64,000 bases of DNA from the IMG/VR virus record IMGVR_UViG_3300042445_001485; one strand, 5' to 3'. A model generated the notes under the pieces. The model was not told the DNA's origin, made no database searches, and was given only the letters and a program-made list of their open reading frames with translations. Of this stretch, positions 1-64,000 are shown piece by piece. The DNA is from a virus (Duplodnaviria; Caudoviricetes). Made by a program: the position numbers and the translations under genes. Each line of letters starts with the position of its first letter. The first letter of the stretch is position 1.

Positions 1-201
1 GATGGATTTGGATTAAACGAAAACTTTGCGGATGGCAAAAACCCTGGCCGCAAAGGACTTGCCAAGCGTTCAGGTGTCGACACCAAAGCAAGTGTAAGCA
101 GTCTAAGAAAAACTGCTAAAAATAGTTCAGGTGAAAAACAACGCATGGCACACTGGTTGGCCAACATGAAGGCTGGCCGTGCAAAGGCCAAGAAAAAATG
201 A
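1..201 (+). CDS. 3' end of a hypothetical, probably virion-associated protein (partial, runs off the window start)
   Basis: Frame 1 is open from base 1 (DGFGLNENFADGKNPGRKG...AKKK) to TGA at 199-201, which overlaps the ATG of the next gene (ATGA). Confidence 0.7.
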   Translation, partial: DGFGLNENFADGKNPGRKGLAKRSGVDTKASVSSLRKTAKNSSGEKQRMAHWLANMKAGRAKAKKK

Positions 202-836
202 AAATCTCCGAAGTCATTATAGAAGATTTAAAGCGTAGAGATTTCCTAGGCGGCACAGCAGCCACACTTGCAGGGTTAGCGACCACTGATGCTGAGGCTG
301 CCAAAAAGAAACCCGCTAAGCCACAAGATAAAAATGCACAAGCAATGAATACCAAGATTGATAGCAAGTATCAATTGTCACCAGGTGAAGACTTACCTGC
401 ATTGAGCAATAATCCTCGTGTGGAGATTGCTGTACAGAAAGCCGCACGGGCACATGGTATCACACACCCAGCAGAACTTGCACAGTTCATGGCACAAACC
501 AATCATGAGTCGTGGGACTTTACCAAACTGTACCAAGTGGGCGACAAACGAGTGTATGGTGGCAAGGGACTTATACAGTTGACTGGAAAACAAAACTATG
601 CCGCAGCCAGTAAATTTGCCGGGGTTGATTTGGTTCGGCATCCCAACGAAGCCGCCAAGTTAGATACTGCACTAAAAATAGCCATATGGTTCTGGAAGAA
701 CGAAGTCAGACGCTATGCTAAGTCTCCGGGGCAGTTTATGGATACTAGATTGATAACACGAATTGTGAACGGCCCGGACATGAATGGTTTAAAAGATCGT
801 CACGAGAAGTTCAAACGGTATCTGGATATACTATAA
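198..836 (+). CDS. Glycoside hydrolase family 19 (lysozyme-like muramidase/endolysin) with twin-arginine-like N-terminus
   Basis: GH19 motifs FMAQTNHES, YGGKGLIQLTGKQNY, AIWFW and ITRIVNG; N-terminus KRRDFLGGTAATLAGLATTDAEA. Confidence 0.85.
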   Translation: MKISEVIIEDLKRRDFLGGTAATLAGLATTDAEAAKKKPAKPQDKNAQAMNTKIDSKYQLSPGEDLPALSNNPRVEIAVQKAARAHGITHPAELAQFMAQTNHESWDFTKLYQVGDKRVYGGKGLIQLTGKQNYAAASKFAGVDLVRHPNEAAKLDTALKIAIWFWKNEVRRYAKSPGQFMDTRLITRIVNGPDMNGLKDRHEKFKRYLDIL

Positions 837-1976
837 TTACCAATAGAAGCTTCTAACAGCTTCTACCACTCGGTCAACTTCTTCGTCAGTCAGCTCAGGA
901 TATATAGGAAGGCTTAGGCATTCCCTGGTAAGGCGAGTTGCTTCCCAAAAACTACCTGTTACAGGATCCGGACCATAACATTCCCCCACCGGGTAATCAA
1001 ACAGGGTCTTGTTGTAATGAATCTTTGTTTCAATTCCGGCAATAGTCAAATGGTTTTGTAACTTACTGCGTTCTTTGCTCCTGATCACATACTTGTGCCA
1101 AGCATGAACAGCACCCGGGGTGGCTGTAGGCACATCGACAAACTTCAATAACTCTGTACTGTAGTATTCAGCAATACGAGTTCTACGCTCTTGCCAAGCA
1201 TCAAAGTATTGAAGTTTAACCAACATCTGAGCACAATCAGCTTCGCTCATTTTGCTATTGGTGCCTGAGTATTCGTGGTCTGATTCTTTGCCATTGTTGC
1301 GTTCGTTGCGTATGTTTGAGGCAACTCCGGCATCGTCAGTTAGAACCATTCCGCCTGATCCATAATTGTTTAGATTCTTAGTGGGATCAAAACTCAACAC
1401 ACTGATGTCACCCATCTTACCACTAGGGATACCTCGATAACTGGCACCAAAACTTTGTGCGGCATCTTCAATGACATTCAATTTCCGGCTAGTGAAGAAC
1501 TCTGTTTGCAGTCTAAATCTATCGTAGTCAATGGTGTTGCCATATAGGTTAACATACATGACAGTAGTGACATTGTCTTCGATGTGCGCCCGTTCTAGTG
1601 ATTCTAAATACATCAATCCCTGTAGATCAACATCGACCATGTGTGTGTTTTTAAATGCAGATTGTGCGGCCACATTTACTGTGGCAACAAAACTGACGGC
1701 AGGAATTATTAAAGCATCGTTGTCATCTTCAAACTCCTCCAATGCAAACTTTAGTCCCTGTGTGCCACTGTTGACTGCAATGGCATAGGTTCTGTCACAT
1801 CTACGGGCAATGGCTTCTTCAAAACGCATGGTGTACATGCCATCTAGTACTTGTCCAGACCGGTACACATCATCCGTGGCAGTCAACAGCTCTTCTCTAT
1901 GCAGAGCATACTGTCGACGAATACCAAAGAAAGGGATTAGATTCGAATTTTCCAATATGGGCTGGCCTTGAACCAT
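837..1976 (-). CDS. DegT/DnrJ/EryC1/StrS family PLP-dependent nucleotide-sugar aminotransferase
   Basis: Motifs NSGTQGL, IEDAAQSFGA and SFDPTKNLNNYGSGG (PLP lysine), ECLSLPIYPEL. The true start may be slightly downstream. Confidence 0.9.
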   Translation of the reverse strand: MVQGQPILENSNLIPFFGIRRQYALHREELLTATDDVYRSGQVLDGMYTMRFEEAIARRCDRTYAIAVNSGTQGLKFALEEFEDDNDALIIPAVSFVATVNVAAQSAFKNTHMVDVDLQGLMYLESLERAHIEDNVTTVMYVNLYGNTIDYDRFRLQTEFFTSRKLNVIEDAAQSFGASYRGIPSGKMGDISVLSFDPTKNLNNYGSGGMVLTDDAGVASNIRNERNNGKESDHEYSGTNSKMSEADCAQMLVKLQYFDAWQERRTRIAEYYSTELLKFVDVPTATPGAVHAWHKYVIRSKERSKLQNHLTIAGIETKIHYNKTLFDYPVGECYGPDPVTGSFWEATRLTRECLSLPIYPELTDEEVDRVVEAVRSFYW

Positions 1977-4277: not shown

Positions 4278-4619
4278 TTAAAGGTCTCTAAGAATGCTAT
4301 CGGTTATAGGTTGTACAGTTTTTGCCACTGAATCTACACTGATATAAAAATCGACATCGTCGATGATATGGTCAAGAGCTTTTAGTTTGCTGTTAACCAT
4401 ATACTCAACTAACTCGGGGTCTTGCCCGTCTGCTAGTAATTGTTTAATATCTACAATAACACTAGTCCCATCTCGTAAATTAACTTGAATGGATTCTAGA
4501 CAACCAATAGGAACTTCTTTTTTCTCTACATCTTTAAGGATGCGTTCCCATTGTTCTTTTTTGCTGACCTTAAGCCGCTTGCTTCTTGGTTGTCTTGGTT
4601 TTTTTGGTTGTTGTGACAT
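4278..4619 (-). CDS. Hypothetical protein
   Basis: 113 aa ORF in a tightly packed operon. Confidence 0.7.
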   Translation of the reverse strand: MSQQPKKPRQPRSKRLKVSKKEQWERILKDVEKKEVPIGCLESIQVNLRDGTSVIVDIKQLLADGQDPELVEYMVNSKLKALDHIIDDVDFYISVDSVAKTVQPITDSILRDL

Positions 4620-5235
4620 TGTGCGGTGCTAGTGATTGGGCTTCGGTTTCAAGGCGTTTGGCCTCTGCTAATAATTGTTCTGCCTGCTTCTTCATTTGAG
4701 CAGATTGTTCTAACCGTTGTGCGGCAAGATCCGCATCAGTTAGAAAACCGCTTTCAGGAAGAATCACTTCACCTGCACGACTGTTGGGAGGAACTCCAAC
4801 TTCTTTTTCTACTATTGTTTTTCTATTTTGTTTACCTGTTGCACCACGCGACGAATCTAGATCAGACATGCGCTTAACAGCCTCGTCACCTTTAGCCATT
4901 TCAGATAGTAACTTGTTTAGCTCATCTAAACGAATTGTTGTTTTATTATTTGGTGTAACGATAACCTGGTTAGTTGGAACTTTTTTCATCCAACCACTTT
5001 TGTGTAGGTTTGTTAATAATTTTCCACCTTCATTGTCCAGTGTGCGGAATAACACATCTGCCAGATCCGGGGTGTTTTGTCCTTCGGGACTTTCTACAGC
5101 TCTCATTAGATTGTCATGCACAGCACGGGGCAAAGCATCACTGTATACAATGAGTGCCATATGCTCTTCGCTAGGTACGCTACGATATACTACGACAGCT
5201 TTTTGTTGATTGTGTCTGGCGATATGTTTTAACAT
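4570..5235 (-). CDS. Hypothetical protein
   Basis: 221 aa ORF packed between its neighbours, with a C-terminal coiled-coil/basic tail. Confidence 0.75.
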   Translation of the reverse strand: MLKHIARHNQQKAVVVYRSVPSEEHMALIVYSDALPRAVHDNLMRAVESPEGQNTPDLADVLFRTLDNEGGKLLTNLHKSGWMKKVPTNQVIVTPNNKTTIRLDELNKLLSEMAKGDEAVKRMSDLDSSRGATGKQNRKTIVEKEVGVPPNSRAGEVILPESGFLTDADLAAQRLEQSAQMKKQAEQLLAEAKRLETEAQSLAPHNVTTTKKTKTTKKQAA

Positions 5236-5236
5236 A

Positions 5237-5512
5237 TTATTCTCCTTGAGTGTCTGTTATGGGTGCTATGCCATCTTCTTGAACTTCTGGTGTAGTTTCT
5301 TCAGTTGGTTTGAGTGCGCCTGATGCGGTTAAGAAAGCAATGATACGATCATACAAGCCGCCGATGTTGGTCATTTCTTCTGCACGAAATACTCCTCGTT
5401 GTGCCACAACTTGAATAGTTTGTGCAACAAGTAATAAGTCTTGTAAACTTAAATTGGCAGCCGGTGCTGTTGGTTGTTCTACAGTTTGCTCTATAGTTTG
5501 ATTTTCGTCCAT
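5237..5512 (-). CDS. Hypothetical acidic protein
   Basis: 91 aa ORF with GGAG SD upstream and a GTAAATA motif near 5549. Confidence 0.7.
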   Translation of the reverse strand: MDENQTIEQTVEQPTAPAANLSLQDLLLVAQTIQVVAQRGVFRAEEMTNIGGLYDRIIAFLTASGALKPTEETTPEVQEDGIAPITDTQGE

Positions 5513-5581
5513 TTAATTCTCCTAAGTTGAACAGTAATAACTATAGTTATTTACTCCTGTACAATCACTCGAGAATTTTTT

Positions 5582-5869
5582 TTAAAAATCTATAGACTTA
5601 TTAATTTGGTCCAATTGTAAAGCAAAGTAACTGGCTTCGCCAGGAATTTCGAAAGACACACATTTGGACATGAATATAGCATTATCCTCATTGATAGCGT
5701 ATCTGTCACCAATGAAAAATCGACCTTCTGTATTGGAATAAACCCAATCCGAAAGATCTTTTGCACTTACTTTGGAATCAAAAGTTACTTGTATAAAATG
5801 GGGAGGACAGTGATCGACTTTACGCAAGCCAAACACTGCCAGGGGATTAACCTCTCCGTATCGTAACAT
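5582..5869 (-). CDS. Hypothetical protein
   Basis: 95 aa ORF; start overlaps the upstream stop (TAATG). Confidence 0.7.
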   Translation of the reverse strand: MLRYGEVNPLAVFGLRKVDHCPPHFIQVTFDSKVSAKDLSDWVYSNTEGRFFIGDRYAINEDNAIFMSKCVSFEIPGEASYFALQLDQINKSIDF

Positions 5870-6564
5870 TATTCGTCTTTGTTGGGCATGACACCAATTA
5901 ACTGTAACAAGTGAATAAAGATGTTGATGAAATCCATGTACAAAGTCAATGCACCAATTATTTCCACAGGCTCATCACTTTCTACACTAACCATTTCTCG
6001 AATCTGTTGTGTGTCGTATGCAGTCAAGGCCATGAATATCACAATAGCGATGGCACTAATAACAGTTTGGAACACACTTGACCCAATCCAGATATTAATC
6101 AGGCTGGCAATGATGATTGCAATAAGAGCAACGAACATGTACTTGCCAACACTGTCAAGATTTCGTTTGGTAAAATATCCATACAGGCTCAAGGTACCAA
6201 ACAAGACTCCTGCACCCATAAATGCTGTAACAATACTGCCCATACTAAACACCACAAAGATACTGGCAAAACTTAGACCCATCAAGGCTGCAAAGGCATG
6301 TAGTAATGTCACTGCCACTTCTTTAGGCGGGTTGGCATTGAGAGCCATGCTGACTCCAAAGATAGCCACCAAGGGTGCAAAAATAGTTACCCATTTCATT
6401 GCCCCTGTAAAAAAGAATTGCATTAGTGTTGAATCGGTACCTACCCAGTAACTGACCAACATGCTGACAACAACAGCACACATCATGTGAAAGTACACAC
6501 GGCCCATTGCTTGATTAATTGCGGGGGCATCTCGGTAAGTGCCCAGTGTCATAGTATCATACAT
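5869..6564 (-). CDS. yccA: Bax inhibitor-1/YccA family membrane protein
   Basis: About 7 hydrophobic helices, AYDTQQIR and GALTLYMDFINIF signature. Start taken at ATG 6564, which overlaps the upstream stop. Confidence 0.88.
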   Translation of the reverse strand: MYDTMTLGTYRDAPAINQAMGRVYFHMMCAVVVSMLVSYWVGTDSTLMQFFFTGAMKWVTIFAPLVAIFGVSMALNANPPKEVAVTLLHAFAALMGLSFASIFVVFSMGSIVTAFMGAGVLFGTLSLYGYFTKRNLDSVGKYMFVALIAIIIASLINIWIGSSVFQTVISAIAIVIFMALTAYDTQQIREMVSVESDEPVEIIGALTLYMDFINIFIHLLQLIGVMPNKDE

Positions 6565-50544: not shown

Positions 50545-50976
50545 TTATTTTAGACTTGCTCTCAACATCCAACCGTGCTTGCGGTGTGCATCCAGGCGCT
50601 CGGCCAAGAAGTTTGAAAATCCATGCTCACCGGCTTGTTCGGCTGCATCATATGCCATCTTTAGTACCAACAGCATTTTTTCATTGTCTTGCGACAATTC
50701 ATGCAACATGGCACCGGGACTGAGTATGTCGGTCTCGTCGCCGATTTGACTCAGTTGACTGAATCTGGTGTAGCTGGCTGGCACATAACTGCCAATGCCG
50801 CGAATCTTTTCCGCAAAGTCATCAATGGCACCGTATACTTCTTCGTAGATCATGCCAAACAATTGATGATGCTCTAGGAAGTCAGCACCTTCCACATTCC
50901 AGTGAAAGTTGTGCGCTTTCAAGTAGAAGGTGTATTCGCTGGCAAATGCTATTTTTGTAGTTTCTGATAGTGTCAT
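50545..50976 (-). CDS. dps: Dps family ferritin-like protein
   Basis: KAHNFHWNVEG, HHQLF, DDFAEKIR and HRKHGWML. Confidence 0.9.
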   Translation of the reverse strand: MTLSETTKIAFASEYTFYLKAHNFHWNVEGADFLEHHQLFGMIYEEVYGAIDDFAEKIRGIGSYVPASYTRFSQLSQIGDETDILSPGAMLHELSQDNEKMLLVLKMAYDAAEQAGEHGFSNFLAERLDAHRKHGWMLRASLK

Positions 50977-53900
50977 AGATCGTATCCTGCCTTACGCATC
51001 ATATTTAAACGAGTTTCCATCACATCGTTTTCTTTTTCTGCGTGTCTGCGAGCATCATTATCACCTTGGCGAACAGTTGCTCGGTTGATTTTTTTAAAGT
51101 ATTCGTGACCTTTATCAAAGTTGCCTGCTCGATCTGCGGCACTAGCACGGATACCTAGTTCTTTTTTGTAACGACCCAACAACTCATTGCTGAGTTCGCT
51201 GAGTTCAACATCATCATGCACCACACGCATGTGATTGGGATTCTTTGGAAGATCGTTAGTTCTTACATATTTTGCAACTTTTTCATCTTCTTGTTTGCTC
51301 ATGTCTCGTATCTGACTCAATGTAAACTTGGGCTTTTTAACCGCAGGCTTGTCTGGTTCGTTTGACATAAAACCAAATACACCGGCTTCCTCTACTGATT
51401 CAGGATACCAAATGCGTCCCAGGCCAAATGCACGGTCAGCAGTCTGCTGTGCATGTCTGTTGCCTGTACGCAAATACCACTTGCCTGCACGAGTTTGTTT
51501 GAGTCCTAGTTGTTGTGCTAGTTCGGCGTCGTCAACCTTGTAGAAGATCATGCCAGTTTGTCTACGCTGGCGATCATCAAATTCAGGATTGCCTTCGTCA
51601 TCTTTTCTACGACTGCCACCTAGACTGGGTGCTGTAGGATCTGCGAAACCATGTTGGTAGCCACCCTCCGTCATGCCTTTTTTGTCTTTTTGTGCTTTTC
51701 TTTCAGCGGCTCTGCGGGCAGTTTCTTGCGGCGTCACTTTTGAACCGTCGGCGTAATACTTGGCACCGGCACCGTCTTTGGCTTTGTTGATAGCACTTTG
51801 TGCTTTTAAGCCTGCTATGGCGTTTTTGAACTGTCTGGTTGTTTCTATATCATCAGTATAGCCCTCCGCCACACCTTGCTCTTGCCAAGTGTTATTTTTG
51901 ATTCGTTGATTTTTGATTCTTTCGTAATTCATTAAAGAACCACGAATACGATGCTGGTCACCGGTATTTCCTGATAAGAGATGTTTCTTATAATAGTCAA
52001 TCTGACTTTGAACAAACTTGTTTGAGTAACTATCTTCTTCGGAGCCTTCCGCCATGCCTTGTTGCTTTTGCTGATACGCAAGTTCAGTATTGTTGGCCAT
52101 CTGTTGTTTAAAGTTGTCTACTGCACCGCCATCGCCAGAAATTGGGGCGCCTTCCGCCACACCTTGTTCTTTGGTTAAACGATTAACTGCTTTTTCAACA
52201 CCTTTGATGCGATTTTTAAATTCATGTTTCACGGATTTAACAATAGCTGGCGAATCTTTATATTTGCCCGGTCTTGCTTTTATGTCACCTAGCCCATATC
52301 CCAACGTACCAACATCTTTATTTGCTTTATTGATATATGATCCAAGAGTTTTTGGACTTAGTTCATTCAATGATCCTGGATCAAACCACTGGTGCTCACC
52401 AATGTTTACACCTTGTGAAGGATGGAACGGATCGGTGATCTGTCTTTCATCATCCTGTTTAGATTTGCTTTTTGATTTTTCTGTGTAATCGTAATCGCTT
52501 TTCATCTTATTAACCATGGCTCTCATTGGATCAGTTTTTTCCAACTCTTTCTGAGCCCGTAGTTTGTCCATATGGCGATCAAATGCTGCGGAATCAAAGT
52601 CGGAGCCTTCCTCCACACCTTGCTCTTTCTTTGCTTTTTCTATAGCGTCCCACTCGGCACCGGTCTTTTCGCCACGCTTTTTCTTTGCTGGTGGCTTTGA
52701 TGTGCGAACACCAGTGTGACTGTTTTGGTAATCACCGCTTGGTAGTTTAGTCCAGCCTTCCGCCATGCCTTGCTTATTTTCTGATGTGCTTTTAGTTTTT
52801 AACTCTTTTGTATCATGCGTTTTGGGATGATATATTTCTACTCCGATATTACCATCATGATCCTGTTTAAGACCAGCAAGTTCATATCCTGGATATTTTT
52901 TATCAACTATACCTTTAATTCTCATGTAATCACTGTCAGAAATGTCAGCAACATCGGAGTTATCGTCCTCCGCCACACCTTGTTCTTTACTATTGTCTTT
53001 GATAGTGCCACCAAATTTAGCAGCATAGTCTTTGGCCTTTGCCACTGAATCAAAACTCTTTGTCACTTTGCCGTTCTTAACAACAGAATATCTTTGACCT
53101 TCTGAGCCTTCCGCCACACCTTGCTCTTTAACTGGCTCTGCTGGCGAAGCCAGCGTCATCTTGTTCATGCCTATTCCAGACTGTCGCCATACCTTGTACA
53201 TCTTACCATCAGCACCCTTTAGCACCATAGCATTGCCGGGAATACGACTGGAATCATATTGCACAATCATAGCATTTTGTCCACCAACTTGCACATGAGG
53301 TTTTTGGCGATCATAGTGTTGAGCACCGACTGCCATAGCACCTGCTATTACCGGAACGCCAAGCAAGGTTGCAGTATCTTTCCAGCCTTCCTCCACACCT
53401 TGCTTGTTAATCAAATCAATATTACCAAACTGTCGAAGATGTTTTATCGTGTTACCGAGATGATGGTGATAATCTGGATCGTCTTTATTGACACCATTTT
53501 GTGCTAATAATTTTTCAGCATGACGATGTAGTGGCATTTCTTTCTTCAATAGTTCCGGTGCGCCTTCCGCCACACCTTGCTCGCCATGTCTAATGCTGCC
53601 ATCCTTCATCAACTTCAAGTTGAGATTGTATTGTTTATTGTCGTGATTGACTTTATTCATACGACCTTCTTTGAAGCCTTTAGCAAAGTATTGTTTATAC
53701 ATGCCACCATGCTGACTATGCCAGTGGTTAATGGTCATTGCTCGTTCTAGTGTTGCGCCATCAGCGAGGCTTACACCTTTAGTGAAACCATCTTCTTGTG
53801 CCATCTTGGCAATTTCTGGACTGAATCCTTCATCGTCATCACCACCGTTAAATCCGTCTGGTGCAAATTCGTTCAAGCCTTCCGCCACACCTTCATCTGT

Positions 53901-54710
53901 TCCTTTTCTTGAGTCTGGCATATTCATTTGACGATATTCATCAGGCCAATCAAATACAATTTCTTCGTAGCATCTAAAAACCTTCATTAGTTCTGCTGCC
54001 TTGGGATCGTGCTTGGCTGCATCTTCTAGTTCTTCTGCCGCTGGTCTTCCAAAAGGATCTACAAAGTCTTTTGGTCCCCATGGATTGGAGGGATCGACAT
54101 TGTCGCCAAACCATACCAAGGCATCATTTACATTTGTAAATTTATTTCTTCTAGCCCATTGAGCAAAATACTCATGGTAGGGTTTGTTGTTTCTACCTGC
54201 CCACTGTATCAATTCAGAGACGCTTGTGGGCGGCATATCCTGATCAGGATACTTTGGTTCAGCAGTCATTTGGCTCATCATTGAGTCAAACTTTTGATCG
54301 CCTGTGGCTTCATCCAGTTGATCATCTGAGAACTCCATATGGTCATATGGCCCCCATTTTTGTCCTGTGCGACTGTCTATGGTGTCATCGTGATCACCAT
54401 GTTCATAGTAGTCATCACTAAAGATTTCCACACCGTTAAAGTCACTATTGTAATCAATATGCAGTTTACGGGTAACACCATCAGGACAAACAATACCACG
54501 ATTCAACAAGCGTTCTACATCTTGTTGGCTTTTAATGCCTTTTTCGAGACTGCCAGTGTCAAAGGTGCCATTGTACCAGGCACTGGCCAAGGCTTGGAAA
54601 TAATTACCTGAGTCACCACCGCCGTCAGCGGCAAATTCAGCCAGGCGGCTTTCCATGGCTAGTTGTTGTTTTTTCTTTTTGCTAGGTTGAGATAGGTCGT
54701 ATAAGTTCAT
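50973..54710 (-). CDS. Large modular protein with repeated QGVAEG linkers (putative head-internal polyprotein)
   Basis: About 1245 aa from MNLYDL, with 11 G(V/M)(A/E/T)E(G/D) linkers separating unrelated segments. Confidence 0.75.
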   Translation of the reverse strand: MNLYDLSQPSKKKKQQLAMESRLAEFAADGGGDSGNYFQALASAWYNGTFDTGSLEKGIKSQQDVERLLNRGIVCPDGVTRKLHIDYNSDFNGVEIFSDDYYEHGDHDDTIDSRTGQKWGPYDHMEFSDDQLDEATGDQKFDSMMSQMTAEPKYPDQDMPPTSVSELIQWAGRNNKPYHEYFAQWARRNKFTNVNDALVWFGDNVDPSNPWGPKDFVDPFGRPAAEELEDAAKHDPKAAELMKVFRCYEEIVFDWPDEYRQMNMPDSRKGTDEGVAEGLNEFAPDGFNGGDDDEGFSPEIAKMAQEDGFTKGVSLADGATLERAMTINHWHSQHGGMYKQYFAKGFKEGRMNKVNHDNKQYNLNLKLMKDGSIRHGEQGVAEGAPELLKKEMPLHRHAEKLLAQNGVNKDDPDYHHHLGNTIKHLRQFGNIDLINKQGVEEGWKDTATLLGVPVIAGAMAVGAQHYDRQKPHVQVGGQNAMIVQYDSSRIPGNAMVLKGADGKMYKVWRQSGIGMNKMTLASPAEPVKEQGVAEGSEGQRYSVVKNGKVTKSFDSVAKAKDYAAKFGGTIKDNSKEQGVAEDDNSDVADISDSDYMRIKGIVDKKYPGYELAGLKQDHDGNIGVEIYHPKTHDTKELKTKSTSENKQGMAEGWTKLPSGDYQNSHTGVRTSKPPAKKKRGEKTGAEWDAIEKAKKEQGVEEGSDFDSAAFDRHMDKLRAQKELEKTDPMRAMVNKMKSDYDYTEKSKSKSKQDDERQITDPFHPSQGVNIGEHQWFDPGSLNELSPKTLGSYINKANKDVGTLGYGLGDIKARPGKYKDSPAIVKSVKHEFKNRIKGVEKAVNRLTKEQGVAEGAPISGDGGAVDNFKQQMANNTELAYQQKQQGMAEGSEEDSYSNKFVQSQIDYYKKHLLSGNTGDQHRIRGSLMNYERIKNQRIKNNTWQEQGVAEGYTDDIETTRQFKNAIAGLKAQSAINKAKDGAGAKYYADGSKVTPQETARRAAERKAQKDKKGMTEGGYQHGFADPTAPSLGGSRRKDDEGNPEFDDRQRRQTGMIFYKVDDAELAQQLGLKQTRAGKWYLRTGNRHAQQTADRAFGLGRIWYPESVEEAGVFGFMSNEPDKPAVKKPKFTLSQIRDMSKQEDEKVAKYVRTNDLPKNPNHMRVVHDDVELSELSNELLGRYKKELGIRASAADRAGNFDKGHEYFKKINRATVRQGDNDARRHAEKENDVMETRLNMMRKAGYDL
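51660..53895 (-). repeat. Dispersed in-frame repeat encoding (E/K)QGVAEG
   Basis: + strand ccttccgccacaccttg and variants near 51865, 52045, 52150, 52605, 52755, 52968, 53106, 53385, 53562 and 53878. Confidence 0.85.
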
Positions 54711-54711
54711 A

Positions 54712-55338
54712 TTATTTCTGTCCTGGAACTGGTGCGCCAACAGCACCTGCGGGCACGGCAGTCTGTTGTGCTTGTTGTTGTTTCTTTTGCTCGGCATTGG
54801 CCTGTTTGATTAATTCTTGGAATTTGCCTTGTAGCTGTGGGTTGCTCATGATGGGTGCTAATACCGGCGCTAGATCATTGTTTTTGTCATTCATGGTCTG
54901 CATGTCAACATCAGCACCAGCTGATTTTAATTTAGAGATACCTTGTTGCAATGCGGCATCTTGTTTTGTTTTTTGTTGTTGTGCAAGTTTGGCCTGTGCG
55001 GCTAAAATTGCTGGATCTTGATTTGGTTGATTGAGATTGGGATTTTGCTGTTGACCTGCTGGCGCGGGCATCGGAGGAACAGGAGCCTCGTTAACAAAAT
55101 CTCTATACTCACGCATCAAGTCTCTGGCGGGTGTTTCGTGTAGTGCGGCTTCTAAATCACGCAGAATGCTTTCACCACCAACCAGGCGGTTTTGAAATGG
55201 ATGTTGACCTTTTTTACCCACAGCCCGATCTGTACCACGAACTTGATCACCGGGCCGTTGTTTGGGCTCGCCAGCAAACTTGACCTTGGAACCTTCTTCC
55301 AGTGCCGACAGCTGTCTTAGTAGGTCACGCATACTCAT
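54712..55338 (-). CDS. Gln/Pro-rich hypothetical (putative virion) protein
   Basis: 208 aa; N-terminus MSMRDLLRQLSALEE. Confidence 0.7.
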   Translation of the reverse strand: MSMRDLLRQLSALEEGSKVKFAGEPKQRPGDQVRGTDRAVGKKGQHPFQNRLVGGESILRDLEAALHETPARDLMREYRDFVNEAPVPPMPAPAGQQQNPNLNQPNQDPAILAAQAKLAQQQKTKQDAALQQGISKLKSAGADVDMQTMNDKNNDLAPVLAPIMSNPQLQGKFQELIKQANAEQKKQQQAQQTAVPAGAVGAPVPGQK

Positions 55339-55826
55339 TAATAAACGCCTTTACCAATCTTTGGCTGTTTTGTTTTCATTGCATTACCATATTTTTTAAC
55401 AGCGGCTGATTCTTGTTTGATACGGCGTTGCACAGGAGTTGTGGATCCTATTGCACCGATGGCCATACCACCTGCGGTACTGGCACCAACACTGGCAGAC
55501 TCTGCTACAACTTCTTCGAATCGACGATCAGCAGATTCATAAGCAAACGCAGGCATTGCGCCCGATTCTTGTTCTTTATGCTCGTAACTCAAATACTCAT
55601 AAACAGTACGCAAGTAATCATTGGCCAGGGTGATCTTTTCACTAACCCATCCTTCCAGTTGTCCTGTCTCTTTTATACCTTGCAAAATTTTGTGCAGTTT
55701 GATGGCATAGTCTGCGGCATTGTAGCAGTCAGCACGGGCCATTTGTACTTCATGGTCGCCATGCATTTCATTGGCATCTTGTGCTATAAATGGGTTGTGT
55801 TCTACAATAAAATCTGTTGGTTTCAT
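55338..55826 (-). CDS. Hypothetical (putative virion) protein
   Basis: N-terminus MKPTDFIVE; ATAAATA at 55848-55854 upstream. Confidence 0.7.
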   Translation of the reverse strand: MKPTDFIVEHNPFIAQDANEMHGDHEVQMARADCYNAADYAIKLHKILQGIKETGQLEGWVSEKITLANDYLRTVYEYLSYEHKEQESGAMPAFAYESADRRFEEVVAESASVGASTAGGMAIGAIGSTTPVQRRIKQESAAVKKYGNAMKTKQPKIGKGVY

Positions 55827-56140: not shown

Positions 56141-56746
56141 TTATCCTAGGTATTTGTCTAGTATTTGATGTGCGGCCCGGGGATTCTTTGGATATAGATC
56201 GTTGACAATTTGAGATTTTTGTTCCGGACTTGCTTTGGGCCACATTGTACGAATTTGCGTAGCACTAGTAACGCCACTGGGACCTGCAGGGAATTCCACT
56301 GTGGGCAAGTAGGCCATATAACCATGCTGACTCATTGGAGCAGGTGTTTTGCTGTAAGGTTGGAGGTATGCTGGATTACCATCCTTCTTAACACCACCGG
56401 CGTATGGTGGTTCATCCTGGTCTTTAACACTACGGGCAAATACTAATACAGTTGTAGCCGGATCGTAATTGGCGGTAATTTCTTTGGCCTGGAATGGACT
56501 TTTAACTTGTACAAATCGTCCTGCAGGAACACCGGCAATTTGTGCTAGCCGTGCCTTATCTGCAATATCAAATGGTCTGTTGGCTTTGTCATTGGTGGCC
56601 GCATAGTAAATATCAGCACCAGGGAACATCTTCTGTGCAGAAGTGTACAGGCTTAGATGCCCGGGATGAAAGGGATGGAACCCACCGGGTAATATAACCA
56701 CAGTCTTTTCGGCTGGTTTTGCTTCAAACAGTTCAAAAATTAACAT
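56141..56746 (-). CDS. HIGH-motif nucleotidyltransferase (cytidylyltransferase-like)
   Basis: PGGFHPFHPGH and SATQIR; start MLIFELFE. Confidence 0.7.
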   Translation of the reverse strand: MLIFELFEAKPAEKTVVILPGGFHPFHPGHLSLYTSAQKMFPGADIYYAATNDKANRPFDIADKARLAQIAGVPAGRFVQVKSPFQAKEITANYDPATTVLVFARSVKDQDEPPYAGGVKKDGNPAYLQPYSKTPAPMSQHGYMAYLPTVEFPAGPSGVTSATQIRTMWPKASPEQKSQIVNDLYPKNPRAAHQILDKYLG

Positions 56747-56768
56747 AGTATTATATTTAGCAGGAAAC

Positions 56769-56788
56769 AAAAAAGGCCCTTGCGGGCC
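56769..56788 (-). terminator. Rho-independent terminator
   Basis: Minus strand GGCCC-GCAA-GGGCC followed by TTTTTT. Confidence 0.8.
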
Positions 56789-62925: not shown

Positions 62926-63489
62926 TTAAATTAATGGTTGATCAAATCCAGGAACTATTTTTTTTCCCGAAGCTGTTGTTGCAGGTGCGCTTCCAAAGCT
63001 GCCTGAGTCAAAGCCGCCTGGTGCGGATCCAAACGATGCCGCTCCAGTGCTTGGACTGCTGTTAAAGCCTCCTGTTGCAGGTGCGCTAGGCGCTGTAAAT
63101 CCGCTGGGTGTGTTGGTTGTTGCATTTGTTGTTCCTCCAAATCCTGAACCAGCAACAGGTGCTGGTGGTGTATAACTTGTGCCTGCTCCTAGGTTAATGC
63201 CACCGTTGTTGGCACCGCCTAGTTTTTCTTGTGTACGACCGTATGCCGCTAGTCCCAGTACTGCACCCATTGCTATGTGAAATAATCCTGCACCTTGTAG
63301 AGTTAAGGGTTGCCACTGTACATTTACAGCACCCTTGCTCATGGCCTGTAGCAGACTCCATAGCACAGGAAAGCCAACAAAGTCCATGGTACACACCAGC
63401 ATGTACATCCAACCCATCATGGGACGCCACTTGCTGTTCATCCAATCTTCTTTTTTCTGTTCGCTTGCGCTTTTTACTTCTTCACTCAT
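62926..63489 (-). CDS. Holin-like membrane protein with Gly/Ser/Thr-rich tail
   Basis: SKWRPMMGWMY, TM segments and LGLAAYGRTQEK. Confidence 0.6.
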   Translation of the reverse strand: MSEEVKSASEQKKEDWMNSKWRPMMGWMYMLVCTMDFVGFPVLWSLLQAMSKGAVNVQWQPLTLQGAGLFHIAMGAVLGLAAYGRTQEKLGGANNGGINLGAGTSYTPPAPVAGSGFGGTTNATTNTPSGFTAPSAPATGGFNSSPSTGAASFGSAPGGFDSGSFGSAPATTASGKKIVPGFDQPLI

Positions 63490-63521: not shown

Positions 63522-64000
63522 TTAAAACCACAAATATAACCCATTGGCTGACAATAGAATTCCTATGGCCGCTACTGCAAAACTGCCCCAAAACATTGGC
63601 ATACTAACTGCAAGAATACTTGCAGATAACACAACAATGGCTAATTGGTATGCAGTATTGGCATAAGCAATCCATGGTGATCCTTTTTTGGCTTCTTCAC
63701 GGACAGCTTCCATGGCTTTTGCTTTAGTAGCAAGTTCTTTCTTGTCATAGTCCATGCGTTCTTTCTCTGCTATGAACTCTGCTTTAATTTTTGGATCACT
63801 TGCTGTCTTAGCGGCAATCTCATAGCTAACACCACGACCTGCTTTGGCTTGATACTGTGCCCATGTGTTATTAGCACCTAGTGTATTGTTTAATACTGTG
63901 CTGGATAGTTTGCCACCATACCAAGAATTTACTGCCAATAACAGTGCAAACACAGAAATAACCATACCTGCTCGGTCTTTGATCCGTGCTTCACGCTCGG
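63522..64000 (-). CDS. DUF4337-like membrane protein (5' end beyond the window)
   Basis: NNTWAQYQAK and FQ/YQLAIVVLSASIL; the frame stays open to the window edge. Confidence 0.65.
   Translation of the reverse strand, partial: EREARIKDRAGMVISVFALLLAVNSWYGGKLSSTVLNNTLGANNTWAQYQAKAGRGVSYEIAAKTASDPKIKAEFIAEKERMDYDKKELATKAKAMEAVREEAKKGSPWIAYANTAYQLAIVVLSASILAVSMPMFWGSFAVAAIGILLSANGLYLWF

Follow-up and report, generated by a model that had tools for sequence, protein, structure and literature searches.

The 64,000-nucleotide stretch of DNA analysed here (IMG/VR virus record IMGVR_UViG_3300042445_001485, Caudoviricetes; referred to as the window) carries near its start the gene of a phage lysin in which four elements stand in series: a leader resembling the capsid-targeting sequence (CTS) of T4 internal proteins, a Glu site of the kind cut by the T4 prohead protease, a segment resembling a twin-arginine translocation (Tat) signal, and a glycoside hydrolase family 19 (GH19) domain. 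Leader, site and twin-arginine module are conserved among homologues, the module also occurs on other cargos, and the complete relatives of the window carry both a gene for a prohead protease of the T4 gp21 family and other lysins. We suggest, with a probability of roughly 45%, that the protein is a cargo of a T4-superfamily jumbo phage that is packaged in the head, trimmed of its leader, injected and then exported by the Tat machinery of the next host. The packaging, cleavage, injection, Tat export and periplasmic role are what we infer from the sequences.

The lysin open reading frame (ORF; 198-836, plus strand) starts with ATG and encodes 212 amino acids (aa) followed by a stop, with the N-terminus MKISEVIIEDLKRRDFLGGTAATLAGLATTDAEAAKKKPAKPQDK. 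Its translation agrees exactly with the order MKISEVIIE-DLKRRDFLGGTAATLAGLATTDAEA-AKKK ahead of a GH19 domain that a first-pass annotation, made from the letters alone, had read. The leader ends I-I-E-9, fitting a T4-type [LI]-x-E site, and residues 10-34 run from DLK-RR-DFLGG (RR at nt 234-239) through a Gly/Ala/Thr-rich hydrophobic (h-) region to A-E-A.

The evidence that carries this reading is the junction between the Glu site and the twin-arginine motif. Among 58 distinct GH19 ORFs, taken from stop-to-stop frames, 30 are of the twin-arginine (RR) type and 13 of a type marked by GWKDW. The N-terminus is visible in 27 of the RR-type lysins, 24 of which begin with the strict leader pattern M-[KR]-x-x-[DE]-F-[ILV]-x-E and two with a near-leader. 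In 13 of the 30 RR-type lysins the first Arg is at residue 12-13, and in the other 17 it falls within residues 17-395; a Glu stands at -4 from this Arg in 29 of the 30, and at -3 in the remaining one. Over 87 distinct segments, drawn from all proteins examined, P3 is V, I or L in 74 and P1 is Glu in 76. For the 30 RR-type lysins the consensus of the junction (a slash marking the position after Glu) is [VIL]-x-E/D-[LIM]-[ST]-R-R-G-F-L-G-G ... A-x-A. An internal RR motif becomes N-terminal only if the protein is cut there, and this is the decisive argument in favour of cleavage during head maturation.

The junction travels with the module between protein contexts. Homologues of the lysin are numerous, and E-D-L-[STK]-R-R-[DGN]-F-L-G-G is conserved in the clade of the window lysin (60-97% identical) and in a second clade of proteins of about 290 aa (about 40% identical), where an additional domain precedes it and shifts it to about residue 86. 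At locus L002 the lysin (domain 81% identical) forms the last third of a 518-aa protein starting MRATEFVTE, with the junction KPGVAE/DISRRGFLGG at residue ~316; its V-A-E site is the same as that of the (E)QGVAEG repeats in a 1274-aa polyprotein-like ORF of the window. A small domain beginning NFADG starts after [ILVM]-x-E in 10 distinct contexts, and the boundaries of the NFADG, GWKDW and RR modules all follow a site of the [ILV]xE type.

The twin-arginine motif itself is not a chance likeness, because TIGR01409 is matched singly by 18 of the 27 aligned homologues (E up to 0.1, best 3.3e-4) and RR is present in 79 of the 87 segments, written with seven different pairs of Arg codons. Eight homologues also match the formate-dehydrogenase Tat target and MelC1 models. 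In true members of the module both Arg residues are invariant and never Lys, and S/T at -1, F at +2 and L at +3 are kept as well; the window protein has K-R-R-D-F-L-G-G (R13-R14), its relatives [ST]-R-R-G-F-L-G-G. An A-x-A follows the RR in 76 of the 87 segments, and in the window this is A-E-A and then KKK. The h-region of the window protein (FLGGTAATLAGLATT) has a mean Kyte-Doolittle hydropathy of 1.16, and the composition over the family is 31% Ala, 28% Gly and 18% Leu, with an uncharged stretch of 15 residues in the window lysin and of about 12 on average in the family. According to PMC7317946, the h-region of Tat signals has lower hydrophobicity, much Gly and little Leu, and goes with an S-R-R-x-F-L-K motif and a basic Sec-avoidance residue. 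The first-pass annotation had named loss of RRxFL among homologues as the result that would count against it; RR is kept in those 79 segments, together with the F/L consensus. The motif, the Gly-rich h-region and the A-x-A agree with its wording of a complete Tat signal peptide; by itself the window lysin scores slightly under the curated cut-offs of the hidden Markov models (HMMs; TIGR01409 16.5 vs 16.7; Pfam TAT_signal, PF10518, 17.5 vs 22.7). A signal-anchor-release (SAR) endolysin was considered and rejected, as the uncharged run is too short (15 residues; family ~12), the A-x-A is conserved and an acidic leader precedes the segment.

The leader was compared with the T4 tag in the first-pass annotation, and this likeness is not due to chance. 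Using reversed sequence as the control, the strict pattern was found in 6 ORFs (7 with a loose pattern) of G001, a complete 352-kb IMG/VR genome, and in none of the control. Four of the tagged genes of G001 are consecutive, and the lysin is the last of the four. At L109, where the lysin is 75% identical, the genes for proteins of 461, 753, 170 and 212 aa are tagged, and the interspersed Dps, dCMP deaminase and DNA polymerase genes are without the leader; leader-bearing genes are clustered at L002 in the same way. The window holds a second leader-bearing ORF, at 55338-55826. A degenerate DNA pattern for the leader, of which about 0.02 matches are expected per genome, has 5 sites in the complete relative G005 and none in the control, and none in the cultured phages Phosso, Atu_ph07, Vibrio 2.275.O and CBB. 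The leader thus appears to mark, throughout the family, a subset of genes that cluster together and, being present in G005 and absent from these four phages, it is specific to the uncultured lake clade.

Gene starts need care in this family. The lysin of L044 (1045-1683) has a GTG start that overlaps the preceding stop, and its leader reads RAIEFLVE; if the first ATG is called, the leader is lost from view and the product resembles an ordinary N-terminal Tat substrate (MSRRNF...), an error that automatic annotation could make likewise. An apparent clade of leaderless MSRRNF proteins (L042-L045) was accordingly discarded as an artefact of first-ATG starts, the frame showing the GTG start and RAIEFLVE. 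Directly upstream of the G001 lysin lies a leader-bearing gene for a 792-aa protein (L093 16615-18990; G001 196615-198993) with an Amidoligase_2 domain (PF12224, 7e-10), which may be another enzyme carried in the head. A late-type TATAAATA precedes the L109 operon by 28 nt, and the window ORF 55338-55826 has ATAAATA at the same distance upstream; the evidence for late promoters consists of such single cases, since TATAAATA is not enriched across G001 (25 observed vs about 35 expected).

A protease fitting the Glu sites is encoded by the relatives. Three complete relatives were compared (G001; G003, of 524 kb; and G005), and Peptidase_S77, the family of T4 gp21, was found in all three with 94-96 bits. 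The gene order of G001 is that of T4 (portal, acidic core protein, protease, scaffold, major capsid protein), and the ORF in the position of the scaffold (4562-5662, minus strand), which adjoins the S77 protease, is rich in [ILV]-x-E, with 6.8 per 100 aa where its neighbours have about 1-2. The S77 protease of G001 (ORF 5674-6309) starts MALYLKE, which may be compared with LIE-9 of T4 gp21. For T4 it is established that the first 10 residues of IPIII suffice for packaging into the head and that residues 8 and 10 govern processing, that gp21 cuts after Glu at ITE-6 and LTE-619 of Alt and itself has LIE-9, and that green fluorescent protein carrying the CTS is delivered into the next host, where it folds and fluoresces (PMC9026906, PMC5694885). 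The wording MKTYQEFIAE, given for the T4 IPIII tag in the first-pass annotation, is not found verbatim in PMC9026906.

The twin-arginine module is not confined to lysins. In the form E/D-I-S-R-R-G-F-L-[RK]-G it also precedes a small alpha/beta-looking domain and an M48 peptidase. The small-domain form stands in L001 at the end of a 655-aa polyprotein-like ORF. The M48 form belongs to G003 (L115 7-2052), where a Pol-beta-type nucleotidyltransferase is followed by a domain homologous to that upstream of the L002 lysin, then by PVDE/DISRRGFLKG...AKA, and then by the peptidase (HECGH); of the three complete relatives, G003 alone gave a match to PF01435. An export signal would suit enzymes of the GH19 and M48 families, whose site of action is the cell envelope. 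We entertain, tentatively and at somewhat less than even odds, the wider proposal that a portable set of leader, head-protease site and Tat signal pre-loads GH19, M48 and small-domain cargos, which would be re-exported in the next host before phage genes are expressed.

Long proteins with the same sites also occur. One module of the 1274-aa window ORF starts QGVEE/GWKDTATLLGVPVIAGAMAVGA, that is, GWKD and a Gly/Ala segment, as in the 13 GWKDW lysins, and the GH19 domains of many jumbo phages lie in very large virion-type proteins. The C-terminus of the 1274-aa ORF (...RLNMMRKAGYDL) resembles that of the 655-aa RR-module protein of L001. The window also has a stand-alone cytidylyltransferase-like ORF (56141-56770, minus strand; GGFHPFHPGH), the homologues of which in L056 (5318-6364) and L057 (5419-6921) are fused upstream of V/I-D-E/DISRRGFLRG and the small domain.

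The assignment of the enzyme to GH19 is firm. The lysin matches Pfam PF00182 with 31.1 bits (cut-off 25.5) and PHROG 181 ("endolysin") at 1.4e-30, and its sequence matches in the PDB are the phage GH19 lysins 7r6s, 4ok7 and 9eoi. In the AlphaFold2 (AF2) model, residues 70-212 have a predicted local distance difference test (pLDDT) score of 84-95 and residues 1-51 are of low confidence; the best Foldseek matches are all GH19, headed by 4ok7, 7r6s and 9ms7, each with a probability of 1.00. The first catalytic Glu is conserved (E104, nt 507-509). The Glu-x8-Glu pair is incomplete, with Q113 (nt 534-536) in place of the second Glu, and a loop of about 28 residues after Q113 is deleted relative to the solved phage GH19 lysins; these (4ok7, GHESGGFTRLQE; 7r6s; 9eoi) have HES-x7-E, and the window lysin has NHESWDFTKLYQ. 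Gln at this position is found only in the clade of the window lysin (4 distinct members among the loci; all of P0002-P0031), and nearly all other homologues have Glu. In PaGH19Lys the equivalent E60Q variant had no observable activity at 1 nM and no more than residual activity at 1 uM (PMC12329726). With Gln for the second catalytic Glu, weak or altered chemistry is to be expected rather than a lytic burst. The ratio of nonsynonymous to synonymous substitution rates (dN/dS) is about 0.03 for the GH19 domain, indicating strong purifying selection and thus a domain that is functional in some way, and 0.2-0.4 for the leader and signal. We infer a domain that works and that may do so as a very slow muramidase, in the manner of a lytic transglycosylase, or mainly as a binder; of the earlier label GH19 muramidase, the family is upheld by PF00182, the fold and PHROG 181, and the muramidase activity is made uncertain by Q113.

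The relatives are provided with further wall enzymes. Each complete relative has a second GH19 protein, of 206-207 aa, with intact E-x8-E (HESGGFN...E) and with neither leader nor signal, encoded directly downstream of a long repeat-rich tail-fibre-like ORF (L107 1387-2010 in G001; L106 1390-2010 in G005). It is likely to be the true endolysin of the family. G001 also has a 920-aa ORF with a T4-lysozyme domain (PF00959), like the gp5 tail lysozyme, and it is the only one of the complete relatives searched in which PF00959 was found. Because the relatives hold a canonical GH19 and, in G001, a gp5-like lysozyme, the GH19 protein with leader and Tat signal would be an extra wall enzyme.

The course of events that we propose is as follows. 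The lysin would be synthesised late in the producing cell and incorporated through its MKISEVIIE leader into the core of the prohead, where a gp21-type prohead protease would trim the leader at I-I-E-9 during head maturation, so that the twin-arginine signal DLKRRDFLGG...AEA would become the new N-terminus. Ejected with the DNA into the cytoplasm of the next host, the protein would refold and be exported to the periplasm by the host Tat machinery, signal peptidase cutting after A-E-A, and the basic linker and the peptidoglycan-binding or -cleaving GH19 domain would then act on the cell wall early in infection.

Several observations weigh against this course of events. The conservation of the E-D junction is partly due to common descent of one mobile module and does not represent many independent events, and the window protein's own Tat scores are slightly under the cut-offs. 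In L056 and L057 the domain ahead of the RR module is cytidylyltransferase-like, and no leader opens the protein. The S77 protease gene was seen in the complete relatives only, and both the leader and any GH19 are missing from the closest relatives in culture (Phosso, Atu_ph07, Vibrio 2.275.O and CBB). Thirteen sister lysins have E/GWKDW and a Gly/Ala h-region with no RR at that place, some of them sharing the DAEAAKKK tail of the RR type; because of these, the hydrophobic segment may work without Tat. Lastly, the benefit of an early periplasmic and probably weak wall enzyme is not obvious.

The first-pass annotation had offered two routes, packaging in the head with the Tat signal exposed by cleavage, and a Tat-exported endolysin independent of a holin. 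The internal RR in 17 of the 30 lysins, the clustering of the leader, and the presence of S77 and a canonical lysin in the relatives favour the former. The latter, in which the protein is exported by Tat in the producing cell as a holin-free late lysin and is never packaged, is in our view unlikely. It would suit the 212-aa form best, whose RR is N-terminal even when uncut and at residues 13-14 has the normal distance of a Tat n-region; the conserved Tat-type features (motif, h-region, A-x-A and HMM matches), the late-type element before the L109 operon and the leaderless L056 and L057 proteins agree with it, and an endolysin-like enzyme fused to a Tat signal has been functionally exported in Serratia (PMC9527704). 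The RR of the long relatives would then be an internal loop-type signal or signal-anchor, of the kind that dual Sec-Tat membrane proteins naturally employ (PMC5449189), but known internal Tat signals follow Sec-inserted helices and not soluble domains of 80-390 residues. The MRxxEFIxE start would have to be some other element, such as a shared translation-initiation or recombination cassette, and this leaves unexplained why a fixed Glu, with V/I/L two residues earlier, precedes the RR in all 30 lysins, why [ILV]xE stands at every module boundary (NFADG, GWKDW, RR), and why the leader marks a clustered subset of genes in genomes with a gp21-type protease. A canonical endolysin candidate, moreover, is already present in the relatives.

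Of similarly low probability is that the lysin is packaged and ejected but that its Gly/Ala segment inserts into or anchors at the membrane independently of Tat, RR or WKDW being a flanking determinant, so that the GH19 domain is held at the inner membrane or in the periplasm while DNA enters, in the manner of ejected muralytic proteins such as T7 gp16 and T5 Pb2. The 13 GWKDW lysins, the E/GWKDTATLLGVPVIAGAMAVGA start within the window polyprotein and the jumbo-phage GH19 domains in virion-type proteins all point this way. An exact Tat consensus with Arg never replaced by Lys and kept through synonymous changes is, on the other hand, not a generic positive flank; Tat models match 18 of the 27 members and the A-x-A is conserved, an uncharged run of about 12-15 residues is too short for a stable transmembrane helix, and a gp5-like tail lysozyme for entry already exists in the relatives. 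An ordinary cytoplasmic, holin-dependent GH19 endolysin, its leader and Tat likeness arising by chance or being without function, we regard as very improbable. Matches to PHROG "endolysin" families and the sub-threshold single-sequence Tat scores are compatible with it, but the leader, Glu site and RR module are conserved at 37-97% identity across clades and on other cargos, the second catalytic Glu is missing, the canonical endolysin candidate is encoded elsewhere in the relatives, and no holin or spanin was seen beside the lysin gene.

If head packaging followed by Tat export is correct, phages would be able to direct ready-made proteins into the next host's periplasm through that host's own exporter of folded proteins. 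Such proteins would constitute a new kind of envelope effector at work from the immediate-early stage, which might serve in superinfection exclusion, in remodelling of the wall or in counter-defence, and the lysin would offer a clean, testable example of a viral protease unmasking a signal peptide. The nine-residue tag together with the signal could serve as a delivery tool beside T4 CTS vectors, and a natural E-to-Q GH19 protein is a probe of the role of the second catalytic Glu in peptidoglycan-active GH19 enzymes.

The window derives from the genome of a giant phage of the T4 superfamily, known from lake metagenomes. It encodes a family B DNA polymerase, ThyA, DHFR and a Clp-type ATPase, and judged by the polymerase its closest relatives in culture are Sinorhizobium phage Phosso (51.5% identical) and Agrobacterium phage Atu_ph07 (47.4%), followed by Vibrio phage 2.275.O (46.5%) and the Rak2/GAP32/CBB group (about 41-42%). 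G001 is closer, with a polymerase 58.5% identical and 49 of the 87 window ORFs of at least 100 aa in common. Among deposited phages, megablast gave no match to the first 6 kb of the window, and tblastn of the lysin protein gave matches of the GH19 domain only, at 31-39% identity, residues 1-53 never being covered. The "moraphage" of PMC12619734 is another lineage.

The lysin gene and the truncated ORF upstream of it lie on the plus strand, and nearly all remaining ORFs of the window on the minus strand (Table 1). The NFADG domain encoded by the upstream ORF is the N-terminal fusion partner of the group C lysins, in which both frames form one protein; in the window the stop of the upstream ORF overlaps the start of the lysin (ATGA, 195-201) in an A-rich run, AAGAAAAAATGAAAA. 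At its other end, the lysin stop codon (834-836) abuts the stop of a convergent DegT-like aminotransferase gene (837-1976, minus strand) with zero intergenic space, so that there is no room for a terminator between the two units. Two membrane-protein-like ORFs with hydrophobic helices (62926-63489 and 63522-63965, both on the minus strand) lie beside a DnaJ-like gene, and one of the two has a long Gly/Ser/Thr-rich tail.

Table 1. Features of the lysin gene and of related ORFs in the window.
Feature	Position	Strand	Basis
Upstream ORF, 3' end encoding small basic NFADG... domain (5' end outside window)	1..201	+	starts directly after L-N-E site
Lysin ORF, 212 aa + stop	198..836	+	translation, domain profiles, homologue alignment
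Leader MKISEVIIE, residues 1-9, T4-CTS-like, ending I-I-E	198..224	+	leader pattern counts; T4 precedent (PMC9026906, PMC5694885)
Twin-arginine signal-like segment, residues 10-34	225..299	+	profiles, homologue conservation, motif definition (PMC7317946)
Basic low-complexity linker AKKKPAKPQDK..., residues 35-70, predicted disordered	300..407	+	pLDDT <60
GH19 catalytic domain, residues 71-212	408..833	+	PF00182, PHROG, structures, AF2/Foldseek, PMC12329726
Polyprotein-like ORF, 1274 aa, ~10 (E)QGVAEG sites	50973..54797	-	ORF reading
Second leader-bearing ORF, MKPTDFIVE	55338..55826	-	leader pattern in window

The closest parallel to this system is that of the T4 internal proteins IPI, IPII, IPIII and Alt, which likewise carry a tag of about 10 residues ending [LI]-x-E on unrelated, clustered cargos, the matching S77 protease being encoded here by the relatives. 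The tag described here is one residue shorter, is confined to the uncultured lake clade, and is a putative packaging signal. Its cargo also carries a Tat signal straight after the cut site, for which no counterpart is described among the T4 internal proteins, and the same sites separate modules inside long polyproteins. With the GH19 endolysins of known structure (SPN1S, 4ok7; PaGH19Lys, 9eoi; 7r6s) the lysin shares the fold, the HES motif with the first Glu and the G-x-G-x-I-Q-L-T-G core; those are plain cytoplasmic enzymes, whereas the window lysin has Q113, the loop deletion, and an N-terminal leader, signal and basic linker.

SAR endolysins (P1 Lyz, phage 21 R) and Lys44 of Oenococcus phage fOg44, which has a Sec signal peptide, use Sec. 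They resemble the window lysin in placing an N-terminal Gly/Ala-rich hydrophobic segment on a muralytic enzyme, with which crossing free of a holin is possible, and differ from it in its twin-arginine consensus, its uncharged run of about 15 residues and its A-x-A followed by Lys-Lys-Lys. T7 gp16, T5 Pb2 and phi29 gp13 are muralytic virion proteins that are ejected and act from the outside or in the periplasm with no export signal, and the route proposed here differs in passing through the cytoplasm and the host Tat system; 3csq is a weak Foldseek match of the AF2 model of the lysin. To our knowledge, the known injected phage head proteins all act in the cytoplasm, for example in anti-restriction or ADP-ribosylation, and the known exported lysins all use Sec or a holin.

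Bacterial Tat substrates such as SufI and TorA have the same S/T-R-R-x-F-L, weak Gly-rich h-region, A-x-A and basic c-region (PMC7317946); the motif described here is instead encoded by a phage and preceded by a protease-type site and a capsid-targeting-type leader. The dual Sec-Tat proteins (PMC5449189) differ in that the RR of the lysin relatives comes behind soluble domains and not Sec-inserted helices. No natural phage lysin with a Tat signal and no Tat-routed virion protein were found in the searchable literature, an absence that is not proof, and the one related case is the engineered Tat-fused enzyme in Serratia (PMC9527704). There is a substantial chance, at somewhat less than even odds, that phages have here a new delivery route. 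The parts, namely the T4 CTS, gp21 sites, Tat signals and GH19, are all known from these systems; their serial arrangement in one protein, and the route that it implies, are new.

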